Counted from the whole stretch's first letter, positions 1-52,369 are shown. The stretch: DNA of 54,914 nucleotides, filler included, from Asterionella formosa (GCA_002256025.1; 4 parts of 4 records of this genome joined end to end with filler, not necessarily neighbours in it); one strand, 5' to 3'. The notes: generated from the letters alone by a model not told the origin. Made by a program: numbers and translations.

Positions 1-352
1 ATCTAGCAGGAAGGCTAGAAGCAGAGACAAGAGAGAAAGTGAGTGGTACTAGGTAGTACTACGATCACGTAAGAGTCTACGTGAAGAGAGACCCAACCCG
101 CGGGAAGGAGTACGGACCATTTCAACACGGTAGTACATACTAATAATATCCGTTTCGACTTCATCTTATTCTGACTTTTGCAAACAATCATCACCCAAGG
201 TTGTGATTGCATTGCTTACATCGATACAACGCGTATTTATGCATTCTTGGCCCAGTAATTGCATAGTTCCCAGCACTATACTCATGCATCATTCACAGGT
301 CCGGTAAACGATATTCGGAATTGTTATATACCGGTACTCCATATCACATATC

Positions 353-2353
353 ATGATGGGGCAAGCAACGACTCTTCCACGGATCGGATGGCATCATCTC
401 ATGAGTAATAGTAGGATTTTATTGTGTGTTGAGTCAAGAACATCATCATCATCATGTCGTCTTGATGGCAGTGCTCGGTATCATTCGTCAAATACAACAA
501 CAACAACAACAACAACCTCCTACAATAAATCCATCAAAATGGATTGGAAGAAAGAAACTGACGCGTTATTAAAGGCGGAAAGTTGGAGCAACAACAAGTG
601 GATTTTGGCACGAGAGGGAGTACGACATTGGAGCCAGCAAATGCGGGGATTTGAGCACACTTGGAAGTTGTTGGATTGTGCTCTCACTCATGCCCGAATT
701 CATTTTAGTCGACGACCTGAGCATGTGCAAGTCATGTTGATGGATTTACTACAAGACTATGAGAGTACGAAAGATACTGACTTGATACCAAGTGGACAAT
801 ACTTTCGTACGTTGATTCATTTATCGATACAACTATTCTACTCAAGTCAACTACTAGAGGAACGTAACAGCGCACTCAATAGAGCGGATAATCTACTTGC
901 CACAATGCTCAAATATTCAAAAGTCAATGAAGGTTTGATACCTGACGTTGGCACCCTGGAGGCTGTCGTGGGTGCATGGGAACAATCCATGGATCCAAAT
1001 GCTTGCCATAGAGTGATGAAAACCCTAAATACCATCATGACTTGCGCCAACGACAACAAGGGGCTCAAATTAAATATTGGAATGTTCGCTCCAGTTTTGC
1101 AATTGTTGTCGCAATCTCAAGATACGACACCTGCGGCAACTGCTGCTGTTGAGACTTTGAGGATGATGCAAGAGAATCACGTCACCCCTAACACTTCATG
1201 TTACAATTGTGTTTTACGATGTTTGTCAAGGTGTGAGGAACCAACTGCGGCCGATGTATCTGAGGAGCTGTTGCGAGAGATGTTGGAAGAAAATATCAAG
1301 CCAGATTCATATTCCTTCAACTCGATCATGACAACGTATACCAGAATCAAACCAATGGATGTCCTCAGTCGCGCTGAGGCCACAATGAAGCAGATGCAGA
1401 TGCTTTATGATGCAGGCATTTCGGACCATTCTGATTTAACAACACAACGTAATGGAGCCCTTCACTGCTATAACAAATTGATTCAAATGTACGCTGATTT
1501 CCGCGAGCCAACCAAGGCAGACACGTTGGTACATACACTCTGCTCGGACAGTATGATTATCCCTGGAAATAATTGCACTCAAGCACGAATAGCTTTCTCA
1601 ACAGCCATCTTCGCTTGGTCAAGAGTGCCCAAACTTCCTGGGGCTGCCGTGAAAGCCGAAGAACTCTTCTTTAAAATGAAGGATCTGGGAGTCTCTCCAG
1701 GTCCAGTGACCTATACTTCCTTAATAACAGCGCTCGCTTCTAGCGGAAACCAAGAAAAGGCTGAATTTTATTTGGAGGAGATTATGAGGGTTTACGAGGC
1801 AGGTGAGAAATCTTGTATGCCTTATGAAACGACATACACAAGCATTATCAATGGATGGACCCGTAGTAATAACCCTAACGCTGTTATCTATGCTGGAAAG
1901 AGATTCGAGGAAATGAAACAGTACTGCAGACCGAGCAATACTGGGTATTCTGCTCTCATCAGGTGCATTGCGAAAAGTGCCTTCCGTGATAAAGTAGAAC
2001 GGGCATGTCAGGTACTCGCTGAAATGGAACAGGACTCAATTCGACCCGATGGAATCACACTAAATGCCGTACTGATGGCTTGTGCCTTTTCCAACCACTT
2101 GGATGTCCCTGCTCGGGAAAATGCCTTCAAGGTCGCTCGTGACGTCTTTCAGCGAAGTTGCAACGAGACATCTCCTTCCCAGGAGACGTTCACTTTTTTC
2201 TTTAAAGCAGCTGCTGGGATGAAAGGCTACGATAGGGAATTGGAGAATGCGCATCGTTTGTGCTGTCAGTTGGGTTTTGATAACATGCCTTTTGTCAGGA
2301 GAGCTATCACAGCTGCAATACCTCATCTTGTCGCAACAAAGCAGAAAAATTGA
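353..2353 (+). CDS. Pentatricopeptide-repeat (PPR) protein, probably organelle-targeted
   Basis: 666-aa uninterrupted ORF with several ~35-aa PPR motifs: PNTSCYNCVLRCLSR, PDSYSFNSIMTTY, PGPVTYTSLITALA, PYETTYTSIINGW, PDGITLNAVLMACA. The Arg/Ser/Thr-rich N-terminus resembles a mitochondrial presequence. Confidence 0.9.
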   Translation: MMGQATTLPRIGWHHLMSNSRILLCVESRTSSSSCRLDGSARYHSSNTTTTTTTTSYNKSIKMDWKKETDALLKAESWSNNKWILAREGVRHWSQQMRGFEHTWKLLDCALTHARIHFSRRPEHVQVMLMDLLQDYESTKDTDLIPSGQYFRTLIHLSIQLFYSSQLLEERNSALNRADNLLATMLKYSKVNEGLIPDVGTLEAVVGAWEQSMDPNACHRVMKTLNTIMTCANDNKGLKLNIGMFAPVLQLLSQSQDTTPAATAAVETLRMMQENHVTPNTSCYNCVLRCLSRCEEPTAADVSEELLREMLEENIKPDSYSFNSIMTTYTRIKPMDVLSRAEATMKQMQMLYDAGISDHSDLTTQRNGALHCYNKLIQMYADFREPTKADTLVHTLCSDSMIIPGNNCTQARIAFSTAIFAWSRVPKLPGAAVKAEELFFKMKDLGVSPGPVTYTSLITALASSGNQEKAEFYLEEIMRVYEAGEKSCMPYETTYTSIINGWTRSNNPNAVIYAGKRFEEMKQYCRPSNTGYSALIRCIAKSAFRDKVERACQVLAEMEQDSIRPDGITLNAVLMACAFSNHLDVPARENAFKVARDVFQRSCNETSPSQETFTFFFKAAAGMKGYDRELENAHRLCCQLGFDNMPFVRRAITAAIPHLVATKQKN

Positions 2354-2925
2354 GGCTGGCCTTCATGTCCATTAATACCAGCTGATTGAGAATTTTAGGC
2401 ATCAAACGGTTTTGCAACGAAAGTTCACAACAGTACCGAAACTTTTGGATGCGAGGTGCGGAATGGTCGAAGTGCCTTGTGTCGATTGCAAAGGTTTTGA
2501 AAAGAGGCGGGCATTCCTGGGGATACTGTTTCAATGCGTACACCCTACGCCCAAGTAGCTTGCGGCGAAATCTCCATCTGTAAACTCCTGAAGGAGTCGG
2601 AATATGAGTTTCTTTTTCAATTTTTTTATTTCCATAAGGCATTCAGCAAGGTACAGCATTCTAGTATTTACAATATTAAATTTCTTTTAAACTCTTTCAT
2701 TGAGTTTCAATGAAGGCGGCATCTACCTTGTTTTAGCTTGGCAACATGATCAAATCTCCTGTCTTCATAGCCTGAAAATTCTCCGAGAGCGACGTGGCCT
2801 CTACAGCAACCCATCATAGCAGTGTGCAACCAGTGATCCACTTAAATATATCCATACGAGTTATTGAATACATCGCTATCATAAAGCTGAGTCTATGTCT
2901 ACGAAACCATTTTCGAGTGAAATCA

Positions 2926-3669
2926 TCACCTCTTCGCTGCTTTGGAATTAAAGTTGCCAACATAGCGAAACTGTGCCAAGATCCCAGCGCCAGAAAAAGC
3001 TCCCCAAAACCCACCTGGTGGCCTTACGTCCTTCTTTACTGTGATTGTTCCATCATTAATTGAAATGATTCCGGAGGAGCTTGTGTCAATTCTTGCTTGC
3101 CAATAATAGCGCATCTCTTGGTTTGGAGCAAATTTATCGTCCGCAGGCAGCTTGACACTTGTAGAAAACAAAATGAACACTAGATCATCTTCGTTCGACA
3201 ATTCCCTATCCCATCCCCAAACCTTGTCAAGAACAATTGAAGACACCCCGGAGGGTTCCTGTGATATCAAATTGGTATATCCGTCGGCCAAGAACGTTAC
3301 AGTAAATTTTCCAGAATAGAACGATATCTGCTTGTCCTCCTCTTTCTCGTTTCTTGGATCGCTACTAAGTCGATAGGTACATGTCCACGTTGATTCGGCA
3401 AGATTTGTGTAGGTTGGGTCTACTGGGATGATCATGGGTGGCGAACTACGTCGCTTGTTGCCCAAGCCATCCTCCAAGTCCTTGGCCTCCTTCCTCAAAC
3501 GTTCAGCGGATTCCCGGAGCTTGTCGATATTATCATTGGAAGATAGGTCGATCATCGGGAGGAGAGAGGATCTATGAGGGCCCGTCAGGGGAACAAAGGC
3601 GCTCGAAGGACAAGATCGCAACAGAGACAGCGATAGGATCAGAAGGAACGGAAGATCCATGCGGCGCAT
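2926..3669 (-). CDS. Hypothetical protein with a bipartite plastid-targeting presequence
   Basis: The ORF track starts at a TTG (3696); the first ATGs are at 3669 and 3660. Hydrophobic signal peptide (LPFLLILSLSLL) followed by an ASAFAP-like site SSA-FVP and a short coiled coil (KLRESAERLRKEAKDLE). Confidence 0.8.
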   Translation of the reverse strand: MRRMDLPFLLILSLSLLRSCPSSAFVPLTGPHRSSLLPMIDLSSNDNIDKLRESAERLRKEAKDLEDGLGNKRRSSPPMIIPVDPTYTNLAESTWTCTYRLSSDPRNEKEEDKQISFYSGKFTVTFLADGYTNLISQEPSGVSSIVLDKVWGWDRELSNEDDLVFILFSTSVKLPADDKFAPNQEMRYYWQARIDTSSSGIISINDGTITVKKDVRPPGGFWGAFSGAGILAQFRYVGNFNSKAAKR

Positions 3670-4119
3670 TGTCTGATGGACCGTTATTGTATCCAACAGT
3701 ATGATGCAATCATATGCCTGTTAGTCGATATGTCTACCGGTATATCATGAGATGATTAAATGGTTTGCCCGGATTGCCCCAAAAGAATAAAAGTTGCTGC
3801 ATTATTTTAGGGTCGTTCTTATCATTTTCGATTTGGTATCATATTTTTTGAAAAAGTATCATGCAACGGCTACTCGATTTAAAAGGAAAAATCCATTCTC
3901 CACAAAAATAAAAATGAAATTGTATCACCAAAAAGTATCACGAAAATTCAACGGTTACGGCCTGGCTACAATCAATGTGCATATCCCTCCAGGCTTCCCT
4001 CCAGACTATTTCGATTTTAGGAAAACTACGCGGATTATGTACCAGTGTAGAATATATAGCTAATATAACTGCTAAATTCTTGATTTGCCATGAGTCAACA
4101 CAGACATGCAAGATCGTCT

Positions 4120-4538
4120 TTACACTTCTGCTTGCGATTAGGATAGCGATGGCATTTGGTTTGTTACAGACAAAATGGGCTGTTCTAAAAAGAAACTTAG
4201 CATCTTGCTTGGAATCAACTGCAAAAGCGCTTGAGGTATGTGCACGTTTGCACAATTATGTCATAGACAAAAATAAAGTTGATAAGGATATTTCTGGGTT
4301 ATCTGGAAGTGATGAGGCAGATGACATCCATGAGATTTTAGCTGAAATCACCCCAGTCTACAATTCTCCACTTGGTTGGGGATATTTGCCAGTGGTTGAG
4401 AAATTGGATGTAATGCCTGGTAGTAGTTCTGTCATTCGAGATGTTATTCTTGAAAGAATTGCTAACATGGGTTTGCAAAGACTTCCAGCTAATATTGAAA
4501 GAAAAAGGTTGGAATTACATGAATTAAATCAAATGTAG
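4120..4538 (+). pseudogene. PIF/Harbinger (DDE_Tnp_4-like) transposase, C-terminal remnant
   Basis: RIAMAFGLLQTKWAVLK...VCARLHNYVI matches the Harbinger C-terminal pattern RxxIExAFGxLxxKWxIL...CxxLHN. The catalytic Glu position reads Ala, and the N-terminal part is missing. Confidence 0.7.
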
Positions 4539-4641
4539 ATTATAATTGGTTGTTGAAAACAAATTATTCATTTTCATGTGTCGCCTTGCTGAGCCAAGAG
4601 GTTGAAGATCTGATCACGCTTTCTTTTACACAATGCAATTT

Positions 4642-6868: not shown

Positions 6869-7734
6869 GGATGGTACTGGAGGTCTAGCTAATCAGTGTG
6901 GTTTAATAGAATGTTGATGACTAGATATCATGACAGCCATGAAAATGTTCGTTTGATTATGTAGTCGTCTGATTTATTCTGTTTACCATCCATGCCTAGT
7001 ATAAAGTCATACTTCTTCGTTTTTTTTGTCAATTCAATCCCAATTGATTGCCAGCTATCATCGATTAACCACCCTGTTCTTTTTGCTAGAAAATCCCCTT
7101 TGAATGTGTTTGTCAATTAATTACCAAATTCAACTTTTTAAACTCTGGCGCATTTTTGATTGTTGAATTGAATCAAGCTTTCTGTATTCTCTATCACCAT
7201 GCATGTCATGCAAATTTGTCACTGAGGGTCCACCATTTGTTGCAAGCTGATGATAAAACAGGTCGGGTTGTTAAAAAAATTCACACAAATAACATGATTC
7301 TTTGATAGATTTAGGAGATGATTGAACCCGCTACATAAGCCTATCATTGAGGCTTCATGAGCGATGCAAGGAGTGCATGAAGCTAAACTCACAATGTGCA
7401 AGATTATTCAAACTTGTTGCTAGCAGCAGTATGGATGAATCTATAACTAAAGACTGCAATTTTAACATCGAAACTCTGATTTTGGGAATTTTTGATGCTA
7501 ATGAATTGCTACTAGTAGTTATTGAAATGAACAAGGGAATAAATTTGGTTCAAGCAGTTATCTGCTCCACCCTGCAACGTATTATCAGTACATTCTGTAT
7601 TAGGTATGGATGGGTGTGGTCCGCCCGAGGTAGAAGTCATTCTTGTGTGTACATTTTGTACCGGCCACTTTTTAGGTGTCGGTTTGACCTAAAATTCAGG
7701 GTGTGAATAAGAAGTTTCAGTTGCTGCCACTGCT

Positions 7735-7957
7735 GCTATGGAATGATAAAGCGTTGAGAATTCTAAAATCGGGAATATACCGGTAGACGGTCAAGGTCGT
7801 GGTAATTGTGGTACAGTACCTGGTCTGATAAAAACGAAGACAGCTCAATAATTCTTTATGCAATATCCATTTTCATTACACGGTACCACAATTACCACGA
7901 ACTTGACCGTCTATATACCCGATTTTAGAATTCTCAACTTTTTTATCATACAATAGC
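7735..7957. mobile_element. MITE-like foldback element with ~75-80 bp inverted arms
   Basis: 7735-7814 (gctatggaatgataaa...ggtaattgtggtac) is a near-perfect reverse complement of 7883-7957 (gtaccacaattacc...tatcatacaatagc), with a 68-bp spacer. No clean TSD on both sides. Confidence 0.75.
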
Positions 7958-8334
7958 CTTACCCAGGTCCTTTCGCACGAATGCTATCTTTTTTTGTCAG
8001 GAGGTTAGGAAGTGATCAATCACGATCGATTGTGTCCAAGGGAAATTCTCAATGCCCTCGTTTGCCAAATGTACGGCCAGTTAAATTTTTCACCAAGTAA
8101 AATGCCTGCGGGGCTGTGGTTACATGACATAGGGGTAAGATGACTGTTACTTGGGAGTTGCTCGATGATCTCGAATTATGCTGGCATTGTACACCCAAAA
8201 TATGTATGAAAACATATACATTTGACAAAAGTTGCATGCTATGATTTAGGAAAACAAAGTATCGGCGTACCGGTATCCCTGTATTCTTGTAACCTTCCAT
8301 CGCCTGGCCGACTGTAACAACGAAGAAGTGCTAT

Positions 8335-12824: not shown

Positions 12825-13660
12825 GTTGGCACTTATTCTGGTTTGAAGAACAATGATGAGGGTGATTCAAAGGTTGTTTGTTTTTGTCAAGTACTGCATA
12901 CCGGTACTCAACAACAGCTATACTATCGTGTTATACCACCATGACTTATGAATTGTATGTCCCATGTATGGACAAGTGCTAAAGGCAAGGCAAGCCCGAG
13001 GTCGTGGTCTCCTGCCTGCGAGTACCTGGTACCAGGTACACATGTTTACGAAGGCAGGCAATTACACAGTGACCCTACCGGTAGCCGTATACCGGGAACG
13101 TAGTCGTAAAAAATTAAACTCCCAGTTAAACCCGTAGTGGAAGCTAGCACTTGTAGTTCACTCGTACTCCAGTACTGTGTACAAAGCTAGCGACAATACC
13201 GGTTCTGGTACCAGGTACTCCCTAGTACCAGGTACCATTTGCTCCTATCGACTGGTTACCAGGTTACCAGGGTACGTGTTTGCGGGAATAGACCATTGTA
13301 TGTATTTAGAGTACCAGGTACCAGGTACCTGGAGTACTTAATATGGAGTCATCACGAGTACATATACCATAGCACTATATTACAGTAAATAGAGGACCAA
13401 GTCTATTACTGGTAGGTATGTATATGTATAATATACAGAATAAGAAAATTTTAAAGTACGCTTTTATTGAAACTCAAATCTAATGGAGCTCGTGGAGTCG
13501 CACTAGGGCCCAAATGGGCCCCAAAGGAATGACGAGTGAGGGTGAGTCATTGAGGGACTCTTAGCTAGGGGTTGCAGACTAGGAAACAACCGTAGAGATG
13601 GCAAGCAAGGTCAAGGAGACCACATATGGCTCTTAGAGTGTGTATATCCCACCCAGTATA

Positions 13661-13760: not shown

Positions 13761-14033
13761 AACAACAACAACAACAACACCATGGCTTTCTTGTAATGAT
13801 CAAAGAACAATGCACATGCAGGTTTCTCTAAGAATAAACATTTTGCGCTTATTAAATACAAGTATTAACACATGTATTATTAACACATCAGGAGCAAAAG
13901 AGTACTGGAGCACCACCAGTAATATTACTTACTGAGTCAGTCTACCGGTATAGGCAGAGAACGCACGGCGAAAACCTCCCCTCATGCATCACCATATGAC
14001 ACTCAAATCCCTACAAAATAAAATCAATCCACC

Positions 14034-15481: not shown

Positions 15482-15579
15482 CTTTCGATATTGCAAGTTC
15501 GAATAAAATCAAACTTTTAATTGTATGATGCTACAGAATTGCCATAAGAAAATAGAATAGATTGGAATCCACAACAATT

Positions 15580-16704: not shown

Positions 16705-17301
16705 TGTGTCTTCCAACTGAACCAACTAAAGCAGGCACAACCGATATCTCAGTGAATTTGGTGACAATACAAACACCGTGTACCCGGTATATTCTAAAGA
16801 TGATCTAGGCAAATTTAGGCCGATTTACGACAGTGACAGGTAGAGGCAGGAATAAAGTAGGAAGCACCAAGAACAAAATGTTCAGTCGACCGATTGAGAA
16901 TCTATCATATGATGTGTATAGGTGTGGTATGATACCACACCAATGGATTTGTGGTAAAGACGGTTTATGCTATAAGGAAAACACAGCTAAAATTCTCATT
17001 TACCGCAGCTTGCACAAATCTGTGGAGAGATTATTGTAATAATCATGGATAGAAAGATTTGTCGTAACTGGTACTGGTACCAGGTACCAGGTACCTGGCA
17101 TCCACTCCGACTACCGGTAATCTGTCTGCACAAGGAATTTCTTTGTGCTGACACTTGACCATCACTGAGCAACAACATCGGCATTCATTAGTACGGTATG
17201 CAGCCATAATTCCATAGCGATATCGAAAGGAAAGAATTGTTTGATTTTACCCTGCTCGCACTTCTTTTAAAAAGAAAATCTAATACAGAAGATATCTGGA
17301 A

Positions 17302-18228: not shown

Positions 18229-18850
18229 ACAATAGATATTGGAATTATAATCTGTAAAATATATGCCGGTACTAGATTTGCGTTCATGTCCTTTCCAAGC
18301 TTGCTCGCCCAGGCATCCAAGTTGATTCTACCAGATAGGTACCTGGTACTCTCGCAAGAACCAACCAGGTGCTCCTGTGGTATATACAACAAATGAATCA
18401 CTGGGTAATAAAATGTTAAAGGAAAAAAGTTGTGTACAGAATGCATAGATAGTGTATAAAAATAGGAAACATACAACTACAAAATGTATCATTGGTAAAT
18501 ACCAAAATAAAAAACCTGCATCGCATTCAAACAAAACCATTTCATGCAGAATCAAATTCAATGGATTTAGTCAGTATATCACTTAATGATGTAGTGATAT
18601 ATATAAGAGCAATTGTGTCTTAAATGAAGGAAATAAAAAATAGATGAATGCCAGAAAGGTCCAGAAGATTACTACAAGATTCTAAGGAGCAAACAAAATG
18701 GAGAATGAACATGCGAGGTTATGGAGTTGCTCTTTTTATGTTTCAAAATCCTACTGCTGGGCTGTGTAGTTAAATAAAATCCAACTATAGTTATCCAGCA
18801 TGTCAAAGAAACTATAAGTTCAATACATATAGAACCATTAACAACCAGTG

Positions 18851-20527
18851 CTAATATATAGTACTGTTAAAAAAGATCATCCAGAAAAGTGCTAGCCAAC
18901 TCAATTGCTCCTTCCCCCCAGCTGCTAGCCTATCAGGTAAAATTCCCGCTCTTTCCAGAGCCGCCTTCCCAATGTGAGGTATATTATAATTGTTGTCGCC
19001 ATTAACCAAAATAATCTCTTCCAAGCAACCCTGTAATGTTAAGAAAGAACAATTTAATTTGGTTGGTTCAAAAAAATCGAATGCTGCCTGCACTGCCTCT
19101 ATCAAACCGTCGATGTTGTTGCGGGCTTCTGCCACAGAGACCCATTGACCTGACTGTAATGCCCTAAATAAGATAGATCGTTGATATTCAAATCCGGACT
19201 GTTCGCGGGTTGCTTAGTCAATCGAATATCCCATTCTTCATCTGTTGCAGCTGCTACAAAGGGAACAAAATCGGAACCAAAATGTGTTGAAGCATTGTCA
19301 TGCTGTAGATTTATTCTTTTGTTTCCATCAGGCCACTTCGCTTTTATCATAGGTAAAACATTATCAACAATCATGTCAGCATATGACGGTTTTGTCACTG
19401 GGAGTGACTTTGTTTCCATTGTCCCTGCCGGTCGATAAATTGAACTTTTTTGCGCTGCTACTTGGTGCACAAATAGCCAAATCCCAATTTTACCATCAAA
19501 CGTACACACTTTTTCGTCGTCAAAACGCGGATGTGTCACAGCAGAAAGGAACATGACCTTTTCGATATTCTCCTTATGTTTTGTCCGCCTTGTGGGAGCC
19601 TCTTCTCCATGAGCCAGATATATTTTCAACTTTCCTTCTAAAACAAAGAACCACTTTTCATCTATAGGAACCTGGTAGCCATCATAGTAACCAAACAGTC
19701 CCGGATCAAAATCAATATCAGGGGAAGGATGGTGTTCTTGATCTGGATGGTTCAATTGTAAATGATTCACACAATACATAAAACGACTTATCTTACCCTC
19801 CTCCGAAAGCATCGGCTTGACTGAACTTGTGTGCAGTCGTATTACATTCTCTCTGTTATCCTTTGCAATCCAAAGAACTGTTGACTTGGGAAGGGCAAGA
19901 GCAGCTGCTAATTTACGATATGCAGTACGCTTGCGATATGGAATACCTCTAATCGCTGCAATTATTTCTTACGTGGGTATTTGCAAGTATACCCAGTCAA
20001 TAATTTGCGGGAAAGCGATGCAAACACGTAAGTATCATCATTAGAATAGGATTCGAGCGCGCGGTTCCAAACACGTTGTATAGTTGTTTTATCAAATTTG
20101 AACCGACCTGCCAAAAATGTAACGGTTCCACGCACTAAAATGAGCCGACCATCCATTTCGTCCCCTCCATCAGGTCCTTTTTGGAGGTTCCGTAAACCAT
20201 AATCCAACACGAGTTGACACTCTTCTGGTGTTAGATCCTTTCTCATGTGCTTGTTGAGAAGAGGTGGTGGCAAGAAAAAAGGGGGGTCAGTCATCTGCAT
20301 TTCGCTCGAGATGAGCAAAAGTGGAAGTCAAAAAAGCCGAAAAACGTTCTTTTTTTCAGGCGTAGTTGCCAATTTTCATCTTTCTTTATATAATATATAT
20401 ATGGATCGGTAGCTTACTAGAGCAAGCTGCACCATAGGGCTATTGAGCCGGAGAAAATCGTAGGAGTCAAAATGGCCCGCCCGGATAAATTTGAATTATC
20501 GATGCAACTGTTACTAGACAGAGGGAG
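18851..20527 (-). mobile_element. Tc1/mariner DD39D (plant-mariner-like) transposon with a frameshifted transposase
   Basis: HTH region at 20318-19962. Catalytic IDEKWF, LQHDNA and QPANSPDLNIND, with 39 residues between the second and third Asp. C-terminal GDNNYNIPHIGK. Stowaway-type TIR CTCCCTCTGTCT ends at 20527, followed by TA. The opposite TIR was not found. Confidence 0.88.
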
Positions 20528-20591
20528 TACCAGGTACACAGCCTGGTACTGCTAAGCATCACTAAATTCCTGCTGGCAGCCGGTATGTAAA

Positions 20592-23500
20592 TTAGTAGTA
20601 CCTGGTAGTAAAGTGCTGCTCCAGCAGTATGGTGCTGCCGTCATTGAAAGGGCAGAAGCGATTTTGCGCTACTGTCGGTAATACACCGGCATTGCTCCTA
20701 GTAGCTACTAGTACACAAATGACCAGTATACTGACTCTCCCTCTCAGCCGAAGATACCAACTAAAAAAAGATTGAGGAGTGAATGAGACAAATATTATTG
20801 GTATCACAGGGGGAATGCATAGTAGGATAGTAAACACAACCACCCCATGACCAGCCAACTTCCGAATGGACTCGTCGAAAACAGTGCGCACAAGTCCTTT
20901 GGTGAAGATGTCTGCCTTTTGTTCGGTAGTGGCAATCTTGATGATTTTAATGTGTCCATTTGCAACATGGGAACGGAAGAAATGGTACTTGACAGCAATG
21001 TGTTTAGACCGGGGTGTCATGCAAGGTGAGGAGGCAAGAATGAGAGCCCCATTGTTATCCTCAAAAACCTTAGAATAGGTTCGAATTTCAAAAATTGGAC
21101 TATGTCCCATAGAAATTGCCATTTCCTGAACAAGGGCACGAATAGGAATAAGCTCACGCATGGAATGGGACAATGCAATGTACTCAGCTTCCAAAGTGGA
21201 CAAGGCAACTTCACTTTGAAGTTTTGAAGTCCAGGTAAGAGGACAGCCACCAATGGTGATAAGGTATCTGGTACGCGACTTGACACTAAGAGGGTTTTGG
21301 TCATCTTCATGTAGCCAAAGGCCAGCAAAATCCGCATCAACATAACAATCAACCCCAAGATCCCCAGATGGAGAAAGAATGAGACATTTGTGATGGGTGC
21401 GAATGAGGTATCGTCCAATGGCTTTAATTGCAAGTGCATGGGTTTGCTTGGGAGCATGAGAGAATCGAGCACACTGGTGAACCGCAAAGGCAATATCAGG
21501 GCAAGAGTTGTTACTCAAGTAAAGAAGCATACCTATGACAGATCGATCGATGCAAACAAATTTCAGAAATAATACCGGTACACGTAGTCGTGGAAAACAA
21601 TGGACATATAGTGCATTGAGTATTTTCGAATTATGTATATGCGAGTATGATCATCTCAACCATATCGATCATCAGACCCCAGCGATTCTTGTGTGGTAGG
21701 AGTCCATGTTGGGTTGGCAGAGTCGAGACCTAAGGTAGAGATAATGCGGTCAGTGAGACCAGTTTGCGTCAAGGTGAAGGTGTCATTTTTGCGAGAGACT
21801 TGGATGCCCAAGAAAGTGGCAAGTTCACTTTCTTCAGTGAGGTCTGTATCGACTTTAAGATCAGTCACAAGTGCATCAAGAACATTAGAGTCTGGTCCGG
21901 CCATTATAATGTCATCCACATAGCTAGCAAACAAGGACAGTAGTTTTGCAATAAAAAAGACATGGATCGAGGGAACTTTGAGTGAAACCGCGTGTTTCAC
22001 GTTTTGCTTTCAGATAGTCAAACCAGAGACGAGGGGCTTGCACTAGGCCATAGAGACTCTTGGTGAGCTTCAGACAGACATATTAGTCAGAATCACTCTG
22101 ATAGCCACGAGGGAGATGGACATAAATTGGTTCATCGAGGAGGGCAGCTTGAACAAAGGCATTGCTGAAATCAATACACCGAGTGTGGAGCTTGAAAAAC
22201 AAGGTGAAGTAAATCAGAAGATGTACAGTAGACCACATCACAACAGGAGCAAAGGTGTTTTCCATTGGTTCTTGGAGGTCACCACAAACACACCAACGAG
22301 CCTTTAGTGATTTGATACGTCCGTCTGGGTGATGTTTACGGCGAAGAGTCCAAGTGCCAGGAAAGGTTTTGGTTGTTGCTGAAGATTTTGAGACAATTTC
22401 CCAAGTTCCTTGTTTGATGAGCGAGTGAAGTGATTTCCTTGTGCATGGACTCCCTCCATTCAAGGGCGTCAACATCACGCATCATGGCTTCATCGTATCG
22501 AAGAGTGTCAGGGTCACTGGAGGAAGCAACAAAAGCGGCCAAAGCGACATCATTGAGGTGACCATCAGTGCAGGTGGCGAGCGGGTCTTCAATCAGCAAA
22601 CTTGGCAACGAGGTGGTTGAATTCAAGTTCATCGCCATATCGTGTGCCTGCAACACCTTTTGTACTTCGCTGAGAGTGACGAGGGCGTACGGAAGCAGGA
22701 GCAGGATTGGGTTGTTGGTTCTTTGGTGGAGGTGTCTCCCTCAGAGCCAGGGGAGGTAAACCTGAAGGCTCCTCCCTCAGAGATGTCAAGACCAAAGGTG
22801 GCTCCCTCAGAGCTGGGGTAAATGGAACATCAATAGAAAGATGACGCTCCCTCTGAGGCAATGGGGACAATGACTGATGGGACGGTGAAAGCGGAGGTCT
22901 GGGAGAAGTGGGTGGAATAGAGAGAGCAGAGACTGGGACTTGAGCATCCTGGGCACCTCTAATGAGTGAGTTTTGCCTGTTATGTTGCTCTTGAGCAATA
23001 AAATCTTCATTCCATTCATCACCCAACAGAGGAGGTTCATTGTCATCAAAGAAATATTGGAAATGACTGTGCCCAAAGAGGTTGTCCCAAATTGGACCAT
23101 TTAAGTCTGGAGCTCGATCAGGATCTGAAATGACAGTGGAGAACCAAGAGTCAAATACACAGTGGAACAACTGAGGGCTGATGTATCCAGTGTTCAGATT
23201 AAGCACCAGTGGGGCAGTGGAGGCGTGCTTCTTTGAGAGTCCCAAGAAAACTGCACGACGCGAACGAGGTTTCCTTCTAGGCAGTTTCTTTCCATCCTGC
23301 ATAGTAGAATCCAGGACATACACGGGACTTCCCCATACTTGGAGATCATTGCATTTGTGGGTGGGCCATTTAGTGCCTGAGAAAATCTCAAAAGGTGCCA
23401 GGCCATTTTTCCTGTTAGGGAGATGATGAATGTACACAGCATAGTCAACAGCCATAGGCCAGAGGGTACTATCAGCAGTGTCACACCAGCGGATGGCAGC

Positions 23501-27688: not shown

Positions 27689-28335
27689 CCTGGTACCAGG
27701 TACCAGGCAACATCAGGTGCTCGCAGTACCTGGTACCTGCAAGTTGCGGTCATTTTGCTTGAACTGACATTTTAATCTGGGATAAAGATAGCTAATTCTT
27801 TAGTTTCAGCAAAATTACCGCAACTTGCTGGTACTGCAGGTTGGTTTCAGTAATTTTGGTGATTCATGTTAGCGGCTGATGGGCAGACACAGGAATTCAA
27901 AAAGAAATAAGATATGCTGGAGCATTCACGGTTAACATAAGGCTGCGGCCCCAGCTTAACCCTAGGTAGTTTGGAGAAAATATCGCTAGGGTTGTACAAA
28001 CGGTGTGGAACAGGGAGTTTCCTACTATGAATTCCATGATTCGAGTGTCCATTTGAATATTTGAAATAAATAGGAATCGGCGCCAGATTGATAGAGTTCC
28101 ATTTGAAGCAAACAAAAATGATATTTAAACGTTAATACTATATCTTTATTGCTGTATGTAGACATGATTTTGCTCTACGCCAAAACTCATATATAAATCA
28201 GGAATATGCCAACATGTATGCTCATGGCTCGTGTTTATACATTATATTGAATCTACGCTGCTGTATGTTGATTCAATAAAGATCAGCATGGTACCAGGTA
28301 CCGAAGTACCAGAGTACCAGTGTACTGATGATACA

Positions 28336-41024: not shown

Positions 41025-41277
41025 GGTCCTCTTATTGTGATTGGGCGATGCAAAGGGAACTAGGCTACTAATAGACAGAAGGATGATGATCCCATTAGGA
41101 TGTTGGCGGCGACTGCGAGGACTATCATGGGGAAGATGACTGCCGGTAAATACCGGGACACGCGTAGAATNNNNNNNNNNNNNNNNNNNNNNNNNNNNNN
41201 NNNNNNNNNNNNNNTTAATTAATTAANNNNNNNNNNNNNNNNNNNNNNNNNNNNNNNNNNNNNNNNNNNNCCGCGGG

Positions 41278-42849: not shown

Positions 42850-42890
42850 CAGTGTTTCTACATATCAATACAGGGATTGCATTTCAAAAT

Positions 42891-45611: not shown

Positions 45612-46064
45612 GCTGAATGACAAGGGGAACAAGGCAGAATACGTCTGAAATCAAAGTAGCGGCAGAGTGGATTCTTCTTTCTCCCGCTATTAGTTATTTA
45701 TGGTTGTATGCCTCTTTCGCATCGTTGTTGTGGTTGCAAATATGCATCTGTGCGTTCTTTCGCAGAAAATCGATTCCATACCATATTCATTTTTTATATA
45801 GCGGTATATATAGACACACGTATTCCGGTGCCAGTATTTAGGTAGTCTATAAATACAGTATATGTAATTATTATTTTTGGAATAACTTACCCGGTAACTT
45901 GCCAATTTCGTATCCCTTTACCGGGTGCTTAAATTGTCAGAATGAGTAAAAAGGATACCGGTACATGCGGTGAGACTAAAAAGCTTGACAATCTGCCTTG
46001 GGATGTCTTGTATGTTAAAGATATATCATTCGAATCATTTGACTCGTTTGACTCCGAGTCATAA

Positions 46065-46350
46065 CTACGTACCGGTAGATGAGCTCACTTTAACACTATC
46101 CTTGTTCCAACAATCCATCATCCTTTTTTGGATCGCGTATCCGTGTATGTTCATAATCTTGTCCGCGACATTTTTAGTTAGGACATCTGCAGGATCCTTT
46201 CCCGTATTGACGTAGTCAAAATTAATCGTTCCATTTTCGACTTGTTCTTGTACATATTGATATCCTCCGTCGATGTATATTGTATGTGCCACGACCTGAT
46301 GATTTTTCGTTAAATAAATCGCACCGTTATTAATGCTAAGTTTTCTACAC
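46065..46350 (-). pseudogene. Copia RNase H C-terminal remnant with PPT/LTR start
   Basis: NNGAIYLTKN...YVQEQVENGTINFDYVNTGKDPADVLTKNV, followed by a purine tract GGAACAAGGATAG and TGTTAA. Confidence 0.75.
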
Positions 46351-46559
46351 AATTGTATATGTGTATTCCTGGGAGATGCTGGCTCAATGGTATAGTAATA
46401 TTATTTTCGCCCACTTCGGCCGTTGCTAAAGGTGGACCAAAACGCAAGCCAAACAGTGTTTTGGTTTCGGTAACCCTAATAAACGATGCTATCAGGAGTG
46501 AAAAACCCAATGCAAACGCATTACGTGTAGGGGATTCCATGCCCATATCCCAATATGTT

Positions 46560-47170
46560 ACCCAAACGCATTACAAACTGGTACATACTATACATTTCCA
46601 GACCAGCAGTTGAATCATCGTCATTTCAAAAAATTCCGCCGCAGATTTCGACTAACACACAACCAGCCAGTTCCTCCAATTTGTTGTTGATGCTAGAAAT
46701 TCAAATTGATTTCCTCGCTGGACTCAACCTGATGCAACAGGAAGGGCATCATGACCCCTTGAACTTATGGTTTGAGGAGTATTCAGGTACCTTGTGAGAG
46801 GATGGACTTTTGATGACATCGAGGAGAATACTGGTATCAGTCAAGAGACCCACAGGCAATTCTTCCATGCCTTTATTGAAGTTGGAAGTACCATCCTTTA
46901 CAAAAAATATGTTAGAACTCCAACAAACCCATTGGAATCAGAGCATCACATGTTTGAAATGACACAGGCAGGTTTCCCTGGATGTCTTGCTGGGTCCACA
47001 GATGCTACACATGTGTCAATAGAGCGATGCTTCAATCGGCTTTGGAACCAGGATATATCATCAAAACTTCCTTGTACAGCCAGGACTTATAATGCTACTG
47101 TGAATCATTGCTGGAGGATCCTGTCAAGTACGACAGGGCATCCTTGTCGATAGAATGATAAAACATTAGC
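46560..47170 (+). pseudogene. Harbinger-superfamily ('plant transposon protein'-like) transposase fragment
   Basis: RYLVRGWTFDDIEENTGISQETHRQFF, AGFPGCLAGSTDATH, RTYNATVNH, RILSSTTGHP.R*NDKT. Contains stops and is truncated. Confidence 0.75.
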
Positions 47171-48625
47171 TGGTTCGCTGTAGCTCATTCGACCCTTCAG
47201 ATATCGAACCATATGGTTTAATACATGGTTGTCATAGTCTTCAACATTGTTCCCAGAAGGCAAAGTCCCATCAGGGAGGAGTAATAATTGCGACCCAAAT
47301 GCTAAGGCCTTCTTCCAATTCAGCAGGGAATGCTGAGCCATCTTCAACAGAGTTCGACCAGTAATAAAAGTGGACATATTTTTATTCCAGCCAGTGCCTG
47401 CAAGAGATCTTGTAGTGAATTTGGAGCCAACAACATATCTTCTTTGTCAATCACGGGAATAGCAATCTTTTTAAGACCAAATCAAAGGCAGAAACGCGAT
47501 CTGCATTTCTTCCTGGGAGGTTGGTATTCAGCTGCTCTTTACTCCAAAGGTCTTCGAACTGACCCCTTCCCCTCAGCAGAGACTCCAAATATCCAATGAA
47601 TCCTTTCACGGATGGATCGCCATGTTCAACTAGATATATTTTATTCTGAAGATTTTTGATCGTTATTGTTGGCCCTCCTGATACCTTGTCCAGAACAGAA
47701 ACAGCAACAGTTTGTTGCAACTCCTTTTGCCATGCAGAGGGAGAAAGAGCTCTCTTGGCTGGAAGGGGTGCTGGTGCCATGATCGAGGATGCTGAATGGC
47801 GATCGACAGATGTTGTTATGTTCTTGTTGTTGTTGTGTACCTGGTAATCTGTACTTGGAGTATATATTTACGACACTATATTACATGTACATACTGGTGT
47901 GTAGTTGGATGACAAGACAGCAGCATCGCTCAAATTGCGGGAAAAACTAACTAATTCCCAAATAGGAATCATAATATTTCACTTATAAAAGTAGTCTAAT
48001 AGAAATATTTTACTTTATTAATAATGGTTTTGTCATCCTACCTCACAGTAGATGGGTAGTTGACAACTTTTAGGATTTCCCAAAAACCGATAGCATTGTT
48101 TTTGCGTCAGTCCGTTGACCAAAACCAATCCAAAAAAAAGTTTTTGGGTTTTGGTTTGGGTCAATGGTTAGCAATGGCCTTAGCCGATTGCCACTTTCCG
48201 ACCCATTCATCTGATTATATCCAAAACACAAGACTTAATTGACAACAAGATTTGTTGTATCTGACACAACATCAGAAACAACTTTGTCATACTAAAAACA
48301 GGCACAACTGGAAAATTAGAAAAAAATAGGTGGAAACCCAGTGTATATTATCCAGTGATGGCTCAAAGCCATTTTCAACTGGTATACGGTATCAGTATCT
48401 ACCAAGAGAAAATGCAGAAAATTGTTTTCCCACATACCGGTATGTATGTTTGTATGTAAAACTGTATATAACTACCCGGTATTGGATTCAATTACGGTAC
48501 CAGGTACCAGGTATCACCAGGTATTTACCTGTATATACACTTGAACCAAGATTTTTCACCTGGCTCAGAATTCGACACGATTCATTCTTACCACGTCCAT
48601 GGTGACGAACGAAAAAAACGTTTCA

Positions 48626-49147
48626 CTACAACTCAATCAATTCAATGTATGCAACAAGCGAAGCAGTGTTCCTTGTGCTTTCCACGTAATCAAGAGAATT
48701 ACGAATAAACATTTCTCGCTCTTGGGTCAGCATTCGAAGCGCTTCAAGGAGAAAGTCGACATCAACCATGGCAGCCTCGTCGTCTCCAACCAATCCCAGA
48801 GGACAGCTGGTATTTAACGTCATGGCAATGTCCTTGGCAAAAGATCCTCTCACACAAACGATTCGTTCTTGCTCGGTTTCGACATTCCAGTCTTTCCCTG
48901 GTTTGAAGATTGGGACATCGTGCAGATAGATGGACTCGCAGAATGTTGTTGTGATGGAACTTAAGTCACTCTGCCCAGATCGGCTTTGAGCAATGCTAAA
49001 TGGTTGTTCGCGATGATGGGAAGCCAATGTAGAAATTGTTCCTTTGGAGCGCTCGGAATACTCAATAATTTCATTGAGCTCGTCATCAACCCGTTTCATG
49101 TTTCTCTGAAAATCAGCAAATATGACGTCAACGTCGGATAATGACAT
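48626..49147 (-). CDS. Hypothetical protein (~173 aa)
   Basis: Open frame from ATG 49147 (MSLSDVDV...) with gene-like composition. A pyrimidine tract plus CAG just upstream suggests a 5' intron. Confidence 0.55.
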   Translation of the reverse strand: MSLSDVDVIFADFQRNMKRVDDELNEIIEYSERSKGTISTLASHHREQPFSIAQSRSGQSDLSSITTTFCESIYLHDVPIFKPGKDWNVETEQERIVCVRGSFAKDIAMTLNTSCPLGLVGDDEAAMVDVDFLLEALRMLTQEREMFIRNSLDYVESTRNTASLVAYIELIEL

Positions 49148-49571
49148 GGTAATTTCGTCAGGTTGTTTGGTCAAAATACTGAGATGAGGGAGACAAATAG
49201 AGAGTGAATGGGAATCAGCAAGTGGTTCTATTTGCACGCGCGTTGATTCTCTGTCACTTTAATTATTATCAAAAGTACCAGTCAGGCGGGACAATGCGAA
49301 AGTATTGTCCATCATGGTGATTTATTAACTGGTCAGGAAAAACGGAACGTGCGACGGGAACCTGCGTTGGATGCTTCTGTTTGCCGGTACTTGGATGGCG
49401 TCTTCTGATGATGGCAAGTAGCAACAAACATAACGGGAAAATAGCTGGCGATTGGAAATGTGTCGTCTTTTGAGCTTCATCCCCGGTCTCCAAACAGCTC
49501 TTTCTGAGATGAGCATGTTAGGTTGCAGTCCTTTAATTTGGAGATGAATCATACGCAAGGATTTCTCCAAT

Positions 49572-50654
49572 TTATGAACTTTGATGTTTTGATGAATTCC
49601 TTATTCTACTCTTTTTGGCGACTATAAGTTTTTCGTTTGCAATCATTTCAACTACCCTTGACGCCGCCACAAATCCATACGTGCCAGTGACAAAACATGC
49701 TGTCCCTAGTACCCCATCACATCGTCGCAGTGCGGACGAGGAGTCACTAGAACCTTCTGGAAGCCCTTTTTGTTCCTCAATAGAAAATACTGCCTCAATA
49801 CCCCATTTCTTCGGCTTTGTTCCCTTGAGCTGTGACATGACTTCCCCCTCAGAAAAGCCATACAATTGCCGCAAATTCTTCCGGCAGGCGCTTAGGAGCT
49901 TATCTCCAGTAGCTCTGGTCAAGTCTTCACATACAATCTTGGTGGGGTCCATTCTTCCAGCTGATCCTCCGCACGTGACAACAGGAATATTATTCTCAAC
50001 GCATCCTGCAATTAGTGCAGTCTTGGAGCTTTGGCCATCAATCGCGTCCACACATGCCGTCAGTTCAGGTAAAAGACCATTAAGGATATCATTGACATTC
50101 TCAGTGGATACAAAGTCATGAATGTTAGTTATCTTACATTCCGGGTTGATGTCAAGAAGCCGTCGCCTCATTTCGTCAATCTTCATACGTCCAATGGTAC
50201 TAGATGTGGCATGCAGTTGCCTATTGGTATTGGAGATACAGATATCATCCAGGTCGACAAGAACGATATTTCCAATACCACTTCGACAAAGTGCTTCCGC
50301 AGCCCAAGAGCCGACGCCACCAAGCCCAATCACTGCTACTGTCGCGTGAGTCAATCGTTCAAGAATTTGCAGATGAGGAGCGAGATCCCCCGTTGCAGCA
50401 GCGATTCCGTCAAAGGTTTCATAGAGTCGACCAACTCCTTGAAATCGAAGTTGTCTTTGAGTGGCAGCTATTGTTTCATTCATAAACACATCGGATTCCA
50501 TATTATGATTAGTCGACTGGCGTAGATGTATGTTGGCATTCAATATCAGCTGGCGTCGTAGTGGTGATGGTGAATGCCAAAACGTCGGCATTATTGTAAA
50601 GGAGCCTGAACATACCACAACCACTGCTGCAAGTAGCAATTGCAGATAAACCAT
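49572..50654 (-). CDS. tcdA: tRNA threonylcarbamoyladenosine dehydratase (TcdA/CsdL, ThiF family), probably plastid-targeted
   Basis: VIGLGGVGSWAAEALCRSGIG, DLDDICISNTNRQ, DAID..SKTALI, GGSAGRMDPT, VFSIE, GTACFVTGTYGF. N-terminal signal peptide ends SGS-F. Confidence 0.9.
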   Translation of the reverse strand: MVYLQLLLAAVVVVCSGSFTIMPTFWHSPSPLRRQLILNANIHLRQSTNHNMESDVFMNETIAATQRQLRFQGVGRLYETFDGIAAATGDLAPHLQILERLTHATVAVIGLGGVGSWAAEALCRSGIGNIVLVDLDDICISNTNRQLHATSSTIGRMKIDEMRRRLLDINPECKITNIHDFVSTENVNDILNGLLPELTACVDAIDGQSSKTALIAGCVENNIPVVTCGGSAGRMDPTKIVCEDLTRATGDKLLSACRKNLRQLYGFSEGEVMSQLKGTKPKKWGIEAVFSIEEQKGLPEGSSDSSSALRRCDGVLGTACFVTGTYGFVAASRVVEMIANEKLIVAKKSRIRNSSKHQSS

Positions 50655-52369
50655 CGTCAATCGTCGTCAAGTTTGCATATTAGCAAGATAAATAAGCAAG
50701 CACGAGCAAAGCATAATGAAGGCCACTCGAGATTCTGCCTGTGGCTAATCGCAATTACTAGTCTGAGTACCGGTAGGTAGGGACCAGGGTACTGATGTAT
50801 AATGTATGTAGGATCATGATTGCCAGTCCATCACAATGTACCGGTAATTGTTCCCTCCGTATACCGATGTAAGAATGTGTCTGTTAGGCTGTTGATGTCG
50901 ACAGGTGTCCGAAGGCTAGATGTAGTCTGGCTGAGGAATGTCTAAATGGAGATAGACAATATTTAGTATGTAGCATCATATATGCAAACGAGTGGCGAGA
51001 GGANNNNNNNNNNNNNNNNNNNNNNNNNNNNNNNNNNNNNNNNNNNNNNNNNNNNNNNNNNNNNNNNNNNNNNNNNNNNNNNNNNNNNNNNNNNNNNNNN
51101 NNNNNNNNNNNNNNNNNNNNNNNNNNNNNNNNNNNNNNNNNNNNNNNNNNNNNNNNNNNNNNNNNNNNNNNNNNNNNNNNNNNNNNNNNNNNNNNNNNNN
51201 NNNNNNNNNNNNNNNNNNNNNNNNNNNNNNNNNNNNNNNNNNNNNNNNNNNNNNNNNNNNNNNNNNNNNNNNNNNNNNNNNNNNNNNNNNNNNNNNNNNN
51301 NNNNNNNNNNNNNNNNNNNNNNNNNNNNNNNNNNNNNNNNNNNNNNNNNNNNNNNNNNNNNNNNNNNNNNNNNNNNNNNNNNNNNNNNNNNNNNNNNNNN
51401 NNNNNNNNNNNNNNNNNNNNNNNNNNNNNNNNNNNNNNNNNNNNNNNNNNNNNNNNNNNNNNNNNNNNNNNNNNNNNNNNNNNNNNNNNNNNNNNNNNNN
51501 NNNNNNNNNNNNNNNNNNNNNNNNNNNNNNNNNNNNNNNNNNNNNNNNNNNNNNNNNNNNNNNNNNNNNNNNNNNNNNNNNNNNNNNNNNNNNNNNNNNN
51601 NNNNNNNNNNNNNNNNNNNNNNNNNNNNNNNNNNNNNNNNNNNNNNNNNNNNNNNNNNNNNNNNNNNNNNNNNNNNNNNNNNNNNNNNNNNNNNNNNNNN
51701 NNNNNNNNNNNNNNNNNNNNNNNNNNNNNNNNNNNNNNNNNNNNNNNNNNNNNNNNNNNNNNNNNNNNNNNNNNNNNNNNNNNNNNNNNNNNNNNNNNNN
51801 NNNNNNNNNNNNNNNNNNNNNNNNNNNNNNNNNNNNNNNNNNNNNNNNNNNNNNNNNNNNNNNNNNNNNNNNNNNNNNGAATCAATATCGAAAATTTTAT
51901 GCTCATCATCGTATATCATTTAATGCGGAGACTTCTAAACTTACCCTAATCCATGATCTTTCTTGGTTTTTTGGTCGATTGACCATTTCAGGCAATCTAT
52001 CAAGATGAACAAATTGCTCCAAATCTCAAACCAATTACATAGCTGACTAGCTAGCCTATATGCTCGGGAAGGAGCCAGAACTCTCAGAATTTACTTTTAC
52101 GTAGCTAAGGCTGATAGAAAAACGTGTTATTCTGCGTTCCATGGCTGGTGGGTCAGAGCATTACAAAAATATTCTTAATGGGTCATGGCAGTTTTTTACT
52201 TGTACCTGTAGACACGATATGTGCTTCCCTAGTTTTGTTAGCATAGGTGAGTCACCAACCACCTTTCATGAAAGGTGATCATCTGAGCCACAGCATTCGA
52301 GGAAACTCCGACTGTATAGGAAGGCTGCAAAAGCTGCTTGTGGGGGGGGAGCAAGACCGTGCAGGATGG

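Follow-up and report, generated by a model that had tools for sequence, protein, structure and literature searches.

Over-represented palindromic words in the non-coding DNA of the diatom Asterionella formosa as possible scars of a cut-and-paste transposon

In this study, we analysed a stretch of 54,914 nucleotides of the diatom Asterionella formosa (GCA_002256025.1; hereafter the window, with positions counted from its first letter), whose non-coding DNA carries two palindromic words, the 8-mer TACCGGTA and the 11-mer GTACCWGGTAC, far in excess of expectation. The best single explanation, which we hold tentatively and at a little below even confidence, is that both are products of insertional mutation of the cut-and-paste transposon type and not of point substitution. 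The window consists of four unlinked pieces of the genome of about 13.7 kb each (1-13660, 13761-27417, 27518-41170 and 41271-54914), joined at even steps of about 13.75 kb by spacers of the form N44-TTAATTAATTAA-N44 (13661-13760, 27418-27517 and 41171-41270); two further runs of N lie at 51004-51878 and 53217-53614.

Results

An exact scan found 14 copies of TACCGGTA, at the same 14 coordinates as in the original prediction, a reading of this DNA from its sequence alone. That prediction had expected about one copy by chance, which was generous: in 100 dinucleotide-preserving shuffles the word occurred 0.12 times on average and at most once. Under an order-2 Markov model, a background over which enrichment had been proposed as a check, the excess proved massive, TACCGGTA being the top over-represented 8-mer (28 occurrences on both strands against 0.6 expected) and the next-ranked 8-mers all being fragments of TACCWGGTAC. 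The variants of the proposed motif family are real as well (TACCAGGTA 12 copies; TACCTGGTA 5; TACCCGGTA 3, at 16781, 45888 and 48473; TACTGGTA 3), but the family cannot be one locus at 329..50846, as the window is made of four pieces. TACCGGTA (14) is far commoner than TACTAGTA (2) or TACCAGTA and TACTGGTA together (4). With one mismatch allowed, 32 matches were counted against 7.7 expected, the one-mismatch variants alone making up 18 against about 7.6. Because the sites are scattered over four unlinked pieces, the excess is genome-wide. Chance, a composition effect or an assembly artefact can be regarded as refuted, given that none of the 100 shuffles reached two copies, that the sites recur in four unlinked pieces and that independent runs of other studies carry them; public runs containing this stretch come from 17 studies, mostly labelled freshwater metagenomes.

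None of the 14 8-mers and none of the 14 11-mers lies inside an open reading frame (ORF) of 150 aa or more, under a crude mask in which such ORFs take up 30456 of the 53377 non-N bases (57%), and the density is approximately one word per 0.6 kb of non-coding DNA. The claim that host exons lack the 8-mer is thus borne out. Its companion, that the words sit in non-coding host DNA, applies to most of them, the exceptions being 21573, 20527 and 20599 inside a decayed Copia element.

The two words form separate classes. The 17 TACCWGGTA 9-mers are preceded by G in every case and followed by C in 14, which gives 14 exact 11-mers, and with flanks so nearly constant the real word is therefore GTACCWGGTAC. 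TACCGGTA has no fixed flanks (G before in 4/14, C after in 4/14), and the difference is significant (Fisher P = 6e-7). Accordingly, the single TA-C..G-TA family first suggested survives as a shared form, but the 8-mer and the 11-mer behave differently. The 11-mers frequently overlap at an offset of 7 bp, producing GTAC-CWG arrays of 7-bp period that lie farther from genes. GTAC-N3-GTAC occurs 15 times in the window against 0.58 expected, with the spacers CAG (11), CTG (3) and TGT (1), whereas GTAC overall is not enriched (196 against about 200 expected from base composition); in some arrays intact GTACs are separated by spacers of varied length (TG, CGAA, CAGA, CAGT). At 13022, 13039 and 13311, 20-30 contigs per run share an 18-mer and then diverge, so such clusters must also stand at many other loci of this genome, and many contig joints at these three places have unrelated letters between two arrays. 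The 10-mer ACGTAGTCGT occurs at 13098-13107 and 21582-21591, two unlinked places, within 15 nt after a family word (TACCGGGA at 13090 in the first, and directly after TACCGGTA at 21573 in the second); this recurrence may be coincidental or may belong to an element end common to both places.

The most direct evidence for an insertional origin comes from a paralogous pair of sites. The arms of a long hairpin around position 7778 are collinear, the left arm ...GGGAATA-TACCGGTA-GACGG... corresponding to the reverse complement of the right arm ...GGGTATA-TA-GACGG..., and their sole internal multi-base indel is CCGGTA (one 6-column gap), present at 7778-7785 and absent at the TA of 7912-7913. The empty site constructed in silico matched the right arm at 96.4% identity over 56 nt without gaps. 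Among 58 such empty-site queries this hairpin arm was the one partner found, and it was positive for TA versus the word; the indel between TA and TACCGGTA that the original prediction had proposed to look for therefore exists, in the sole paralogous comparison obtained. No indel at a word site was present among 12 of the 111 indel rows of contigs aligned to 1-13660. Run X9 is about 2% divergent from the window.

Further evidence comes from a dead retrotransposon. A degenerate Copia element on the minus strand (Copia 1, 18569-26881), bounded by 125-bp direct repeats (18569-18687 and 26757-26881) of 87% identity, retains gag-pre-integrase, RVT_2 and RNase H regions, with many stops and frameshifts at 21650-22010; the stop of its pol is gone, and the frame continues for about 85 codons. 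RVT_2 matches span 21659-22481 (minus strand), and the ORF at 20595-21650 aligns to Copia polyproteins from the residues RSVIG onward, which places the words at 21573, 20527 and 20599 inside the decayed element. At 21573, where a 2-residue insertion in pol was looked for, related proteins (83% identity at best) become alignable only at RSVIG, which begins 10 codons downstream of the word. Inside a degenerate Copia one would not look for a host promoter site, so these three sites support an insertional origin, and only about 0.04 exact 8-mers would be expected by chance in 17.5 kb.

In addition, an element with suitable ends is present. Searching for inverted repeats between two TAs, with C as first and G as last base, yielded one real element, a transposable element of the miniature inverted-repeat type (MITE) at 27736-27831 (DNA fold z = -7.8 against shuffles), of which two more copies, 94.7% identical, come from the metagenome contigs L013 and L069. 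The three copies cease to be similar at their termini, CCTGCAAG on the left and CTTGCWGG (CTTGCTGG) on the right. Two plus two terminal bases between two TAs read TACCGGTA, and three plus two, or a join over the common CTG, read TACCTGGTA. The window copy directly follows GTACCTG, as expected if the element re-enters a target copy made by an earlier scar. A family with terminal inverted repeats (TIRs) of the predicted CC...GG type was thus found, its window copy flanked by TA on both sides, but the other two copies lack clean TAs, and no Tc1/mariner transposase was found in the window. No other TIR element beyond this one MITE family was seen beside arrays in the window or the metagenome loci.

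The MITE junction allows three readings: a duplicated TA, a duplicated GTAC next to ends of the type CWG, or a duplicated CWG as in Harbinger/NuwaI elements; at a palindromic junction the three are indistinguishable. It is conceivable, though improbable, that GTACCWGGTAC is the preferred target of a PIF/Harbinger element that duplicates CWG, so that the words would be targets and the MITE would sit in one of them. The window MITE can indeed be written as CAAGTTGCGG...CCGCAACTTG between CTG and CTG inside GTAC...GTAC, and its removal restores GTAC-CTG-GTAC; NuwaI elements make 5'-CWG-3' duplications (PMC4482050), and the only DNA-transposase trace in the window is a Harbinger-type C-terminus (DDE_Tnp_4) in the ORF at 3918-4538. 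That match (E = 0.011) is below the Pfam threshold, however, NuwaI elements are reported mainly from animals, and only one of the three MITE copies fits: the CWG direct repeat is CTG/CTG in the window copy alone, with TTG/CTG in L013 and CTG/CAG in L069, where CWG acts as part of the inverted repeat. Moreover, status as a target explains neither 14 11-mers in 53 kb, nor the arrays, nor thousands of copies of the target.

The arrays are not confined to the window. The 18-mer GTACCWGGTACCWGGTAC was found in at least 127 metagenome contigs; as these loci were picked for their arrays through the 18-mer, CAG and CTG spacers are ascertained in them, and their ORF starts are crude. L026, one of the contigs rich in arrays, carries the gene for an endonuclease V, and every named relative of that protein is from a diatom (Seminavis, 54%); other contigs encode typical eukaryotic proteins, and a few are bacterial and carry only the two ascertained words. 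The loci of 40-47% GC (165 kb) are packed with GTAC-spacer arrays, the non-ascertained spacers numbering 71 of one base, 71 of two bases and 60 of four bases, whereas each gap length between 6 and 11 gave 25-39 and length 12 gave 15. They contain the two-base spacers TA (15), CG (14), CA (13) and TG (13). The metagenome loci hold at least 38 fully flanked TACCGGTA, 14 of them as GTACCGGTAC, and here, too, no word lies in an ORF of 150 aa or more (0/24 8-mers, 0/163 11-mers).

These arrays bear on the proposal that a 7-bp microsatellite (GGTACCW)n grew by replication slippage and that lone 11-mers and 8-mers are its decayed remnants, which we regard as very improbable. Tandem Repeats Finder does report period-7 and period-8 arrays at 17076-17095 and 28291-28325, and run lengths in the metagenome loci fall geometrically (93, 66, 17, 3), as slippage would have it. 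Nevertheless, of 109 pairs of neighbouring units in the 40-47% GC loci, only 63 agree in W (46 differ; P = 0.125 against 50:50), where near-identical units are expected; in loci of other GC content 58 pairs agree and 22 differ. As the W of neighbouring units is close to independent, faithful slippage does not build the diatom arrays. GTAC also stays intact while spacer length varies, though only intact neighbours were counted, and slippage leaves unexplained both the isolated 8-mers (10/14 without G before, 10/14 without C after) and the TA versus TACCGGTA pair.

Comparisons among the loci gave little further information. Contigs L022 and L059 have homologous genes, and their homology stops before the arrays. 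The match of L109 to window positions 47968-48182 (86% over 232 nt) was rejected as an orthologous locus and is a common repeat. None of 263 pattern matches to BCNT orthologues in metagenome contigs was confirmed, tblastn of 30 window proteins against the 127 loci returned one weak ABC match and no orthologous locus, and two matches in viral contigs were both unrelated. In L029 (2600-2900) and L039 (2120-2480), the sequences differ by one unit of a 54-bp CCTCA-rich minisatellite. Intergenic regions of L016, L033, L035, L052 and L086 also abound in (TAC)n/(GTA)n and CTAGTAG runs, frequently as inverted pairs, and this broad low-complexity GTA/TAC composition is not obviously explained by the footprint idea.

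Discussion

Under the insertional explanation, the following sequence of events may be proposed. An element would land in TA (when the longer word is formed, in a TA that is part of GTAC) and duplicate its target, and excision would leave the duplicated target together with the outermost bases of both element ends, in keeping with the small duplication and short end sequences that mariner/Stowaway excision leaves (PMC4561436) and with the Tc1 footprint taCATGta of C. elegans cited by Seidl et al. (2012; PMC3520976). Ends of the type CC...GG would then yield TA-CC|GG-TA, and ends of the type CCT...TGG, joined over shared bases, TA-CCWGG-TA; in a GTAC target the scar would read GTAC-CWG-GTAC, a gain of 7 bp. 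As every scar would be a new copy of the target, repeated visits could build GTAC-CWG arrays of 7-bp period. Scars may pile up in unique gene-flanking DNA either as the element prefers open promoter regions or as some scars are retained as promoter elements. Excision as the origin, the size of the target duplication, the existence of an autonomous element and the cause of the 5' bias described below are what we infer.

The strong rival, quite possible in our view but not what we would expect to hold, is that TACCGGTA is a promoter-proximal cis-regulatory palindrome, bound by a dimeric transcription factor or a general stramenopile promoter factor and kept by selection, and that the arrays are an unrelated repeat class. 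Its main support is location. Around 12 host genes, with starts taken as the first ATGs of ORFs and a background that includes three transposon bodies (a Harbinger-like repeat carrying an insert at ~3743-7750, Copia 1 at 18569-26881 and Copia 2 at 28450-33666), the zone 120 nt upstream of the ATG comprises 3.9% of the non-coding DNA and holds 5/14 8-mers (P 5.5e-5 on clusters) and 0/14 11-mers. For the 300-nt zone (9.1%) the numbers are 8/14 8-mers (P 2.6e-5 on clusters) and 4/14 11-mers, and for the 600-nt zone (13.2%) 11/14 8-mers (P 1.8e-6 on clusters); the 11-mers, with 8/14 sites but 3/8 clusters in the 600-nt zone (P = 0.08), show no significant enrichment upstream of genes. An exact 8-mer stands upstream of 7 of the 9 host genes with visible upstream DNA. 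The same word is known from oomycetes: it is motif M94, a 'high-confidence' promoter motif of Phytophthora infestans, listed beside M93 TACATGTA with 4150 occurrences in promoters (Roy et al., 2013; PMC3597505). As the inverted repeat motif-9, 3-fold enriched for RXLR effectors, it lies upstream of 1,284 Phytophthora genes and its occurrence correlates with expression in infection (Seidl et al., 2012; PMC3520976), and in a study of Plasmopara ATACCGGTAT (streme-5) is equated with GTACCGGTA (PMC10031896). The contrast in flanks between the two words and the surplus of the 8-mer over its sister palindromes also fit a factor site, as does the CG spacer being no commoner than TA, CA or TG in the arrays of other diatoms.

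Several of these observations, with others, weigh against an origin of the words as transposon scars. TACCGGTA is biased to the 5' side of genes, 5 of its 12 clusters being within 120 nt, and a family site lies upstream of 8 of the 9 host genes having at least 300 nt of visible upstream DNA (nearest sites at 24, 66, 67, 75, 77, 114, 190 and 277 nt from the ATG), yet insertions this near start codons should be counter-selected. Transposable element bodies make up 51% of the non-coding DNA but carry only 1/14 8-mers and 1/14 11-mers (P = 7e-4). The two words differ in flanks and gene proximity, which a single element of one target preference does not explain. The MITE flanks are TA/TA inside GTAC/GTAC in the window, TA/GA in L013 and GA/TT in L069, that is, TA on 3 of 6 sides, and no Tc1/mariner transposase domain was found among 85 ORF translations of the window scanned against Pfam. 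As to polymorphism, contigs of run X2 cross 3735, 7778, 8268, 12899 and 13076 with 0 gaps, so that five sites are unchanged, and the near-identical contigs L029 and L039 have the same array. In rice, a clean footprint followed only 8 of 94 excisions (PMC4423477), so 14 identical scars would need unusually stereotyped repair. Finally, the oomycete promoter motif is the identical 8-mer, and Seidl et al., who cite taCATGta as the Tc1 excision footprint in C. elegans and had masked transposons beforehand, rejected a footprint reading of the sister word TACATGTA for its conservation and abundance (PMC3520976). A purely scar-based account has to assume one or two elements with a strong preference for gene 5' regions, very stereotyped repair and a different target rule for the two words.

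The regulatory account meets difficulties of its own. It has to take as coincidences the indel, which duplicates TA exactly where substitutions would be expected, and the copy inside dead Copia. With fourteen exact copies and an excess of only about 10 one-mismatch variants, the word is sharper than factor sites usually are, and the skew toward the ATG inside the 600-nt zones is weak (5/11 under 120 nt, P = 0.05). The 5' bias is not reproduced in the other diatom contigs, where none of 24 8-mers has an ORF start within 120 nt (Fisher P = 0.004 against the window), in loci that are array-picked and have crude gene starts. The main text of a P. infestans binding-array paper has no CCGG string (PMC11267843).

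On balance, an insertional process is favoured by the TA-duplicating indel, the Copia copy, the element with CC...GG ends, the arrays in which W varies independently and the spacers of varied length. The position of the 8-mer and the precedent in oomycetes speak for a factor site, in general the more frequent reason for a palindrome in a promoter. The claim of accumulated excision footprints is partly supported, each of the three proposed checks having yielded something but none a decision: it gains from the hairpin indel and the CC...GG MITE and loses from the 5' bias, the lack of a transposase among the window ORFs and the imperfect TA flanks. The two accounts are compatible, as scars in promoters could have been co-opted. 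A wider proposal, which we consider possible but doubtful, is that transposon scars in diatoms accumulated into the top intergenic words, recreate their own target and grow into GTAC-CWG arrays, and that the oomycete TACCGGTA and TACATGTA are scars of the same type, brought near effector genes by transposon-rich DNA, some of them being co-opted. We found no paper on either word in diatoms, and the 11-mer and 18-mer strings had no match in the literature searched.

If the words are scars, transposition would be a major directional source of sequence in diatom gene-flanking DNA, with a record that could be counted and dated in any genome, and a group of stramenopile "promoter motifs" identified from word statistics would need re-examination. 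Should the 8-mer be a factor site, this diatom would have in it a promoter element that is nearly universal, is shared with oomycetes and would be useful for diatom promoter design.

Other features of the window

The window encodes compact eukaryotic genes, including a PPR protein, a guanylate cyclase/phosphodiesterase fusion, BCNT, a GNAT acetyltransferase, a family-3 G protein-coupled receptor, MatE, an ABC transporter, a ThiF/TcdA-like enzyme and DDRGK; every named relative of the ThiF-like protein is from a diatom (54-61% identity). Contigs of four runs aligned to 1-13660 show single-copy depth across most genes. At 8293-11878, a guanylate cyclase catalytic domain is fused to a 3'5'-cyclic nucleotide phosphodiesterase in two overlapping ORFs that probably belong to a single gene interrupted by a short intron or a frameshift. 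Scanning the window for Rfam families and tRNAs gave no match, and no downstream promoter element common to the proximal 8-mers was seen by eye.

Repeats are numerous. A high-copy repeat with the Harbinger-like ORF (3649-5016 and 6841-7752) reaches 30-130 times single-copy depth in all four runs; other copies have 1048 extra letters at 4134 and different continuations at 4705 and 6905, and the window copy seems to have suffered an internal deletion and an interruption. The 8-mers at 3735 and 7778 have a 14-nt inverted repeat in common, but the idea that they bound a 4-kb element was rejected because the right hairpin arm is collinear across the 7778 site. The stretch 1-127 has very high contig depth (maximum 23552, in run X4 at position 65) and contains GGTACTAGGTAGTAC, which is related to the array words; a further short repeat of very high abundance probably lies here. 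A second Copia element (Copia 2, 28450-33666) is a very diverged ORF set with a weak RVT_2 match (E = 8e-4), with a short interstitial telomere-like (TAACCC)n array at 31485-31560 between two of its ORFs. At 34878-35900, units of about 191 bp are repeated in tandem (2.3 copies at 87%, then weaker ones as far as 35900, followed by (AAT)n) in a 3.5-kb stretch without long ORFs and without any palindromic word. G+C falls to 0.25-0.31 at 50001-54914, which contains the two long N runs and the DDRGK gene, against 0.39-0.50 elsewhere. The sites are collected in Table 1.

Table 1. Positions of the palindromic words, arrays and associated repeats in the window
Feature	Position	Context
TACCGGTA	329..336	17 nt before first ATG (353), PPR gene
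TACCGGTA	3735..3742	66 nt upstream of ATG 3669 (- strand ORF, 247 aa); left edge of high-copy Harbinger-like repeat
Long inverted repeat (hairpin)	7735..7950	arms ~7735-7817 and 7880-7950
TACCGGTA	7778..7785	left hairpin arm; filled site of paralogous pair
Single TA	7912..7913	right hairpin arm; counterpart of 7778-7785; empty site
TACCGGTA	8268..8275	67 nt upstream of ATG 8335, guanylate cyclase/phosphodiesterase gene
TACCGGTA	12899..12906	75 nt upstream of ATG 12824 (- strand), BCNT gene
GTACCTGGTACCAGGTAC, two overlapping 11-mers	13022..13039	
TACCGGTA	13076..13083	252 nt upstream of BCNT ATG
Two 11-mers GTACCAGGTAC	13208-13218 and 13225-13235	
Array GTAC-CAG-GTAC-CAG-GTAC-CTGG	13311..13332	
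TACCGGTA	13943..13950	no confident gene near; 90 nt before 118-aa ORF
TACCCGGTA	16781..16789	77 nt upstream of GNAT ATG 16704 (- strand)
Array GTAC-TG-GTAC-CAG-GTAC-CAG-GTAC-CTGG	17071..17098	between two divergent genes
TACCGGTA	17112..17119	190 nt upstream of ATG 17302 (+); 408 nt from ATG 16704 (-)
Isolated 11-mer GTACCTGGTAC	18339..18349	downstream of ORF 17302-18228
11-mer	20527..20537	inside decayed Copia element
TACCTGGTA	20599..20607	inside decayed Copia element, beyond conserved pol end
TACCGGTA	21573..21580	inside decayed Copia element, between reverse transcriptase and RNase H parts
GTACCAGGTACCAGG, 23-nt gap, GTACCTGGTAC	27693..27736	abuts MITE
96-bp MITE	27736..27831	begins CCTGCAAGTTGCGG, ends CCGCAACTTGCTGG; TIR ~30 nt; TA 27734-35 and 27832-33, each within GTAC
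Array GTAC-CAG-GTAC-CGAA-GTAC-CAGA-GTAC-CAGT-GTAC	28291..28330	
TACCCGGTA	45888..45896	277 nt upstream of ABC transporter ATG 45611 (- strand)
TACCGGTA	45956..45963	345 nt upstream of ABC transporter ATG
TACCGGTA	46070..46077	459 nt upstream of ABC transporter ATG
TACCTGGTA	47838..47846	G before, A after
Cluster	48435..48533	TACCGGTA 48435, TACCCGGTA 48473, GTACCAGGTACCAGGTA 48497, TACCTGTA 48526
TACCGGTA	50768..50775	114 nt upstream of ATG 50654 (- strand), ThiF/TcdA-like gene
TACCGGTA	50839..50846	185 nt upstream of ATG 50654 (ThiF/TcdA-like gene)

Comparison with known systems

Among known over-represented words, the cyanobacterial HIP1 is similar in being a short palindrome that is the top over-represented word of its genome. 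HIP1 also occurs within genes, whereas the words described here are absent from long ORFs and form arrays. With Tc1/mariner footprints they share the duplicated TA around two bases per element end, and this genome offers one pair of TA versus TACCGGTA and a small TIR element with CC...GG ends. They differ from such footprints in their very high density, the uniformity of the copies and the bias of the 8-mer to gene 5' ends; in addition, the longer word needs a GTAC context and forms arrays, TA flanks only half of the MITE sides, and the translated ORFs of the window lack a Tc1/mariner transposase. The NuwaI elements (PIF/Harbinger-ISL2EU-Spy, PHIS) are comparable in the central CWG within a longer palindrome, in the reading of the window MITE between two CTGs and in the Harbinger-like remnant, but two of the three MITE copies have no CWG direct repeat, and the NuwaI literature is mainly on animals. 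The oomycete M94, motif-9 and streme-5 have the identical palindromic core, are abundant upstream of genes and belong, like the present words, to a stramenopile host. In the oomycete work transposons had been masked, and the motif was taken for the site of a factor yet to be named; here the host is a diatom, and one copy arose or vanished as a 6-bp indel.

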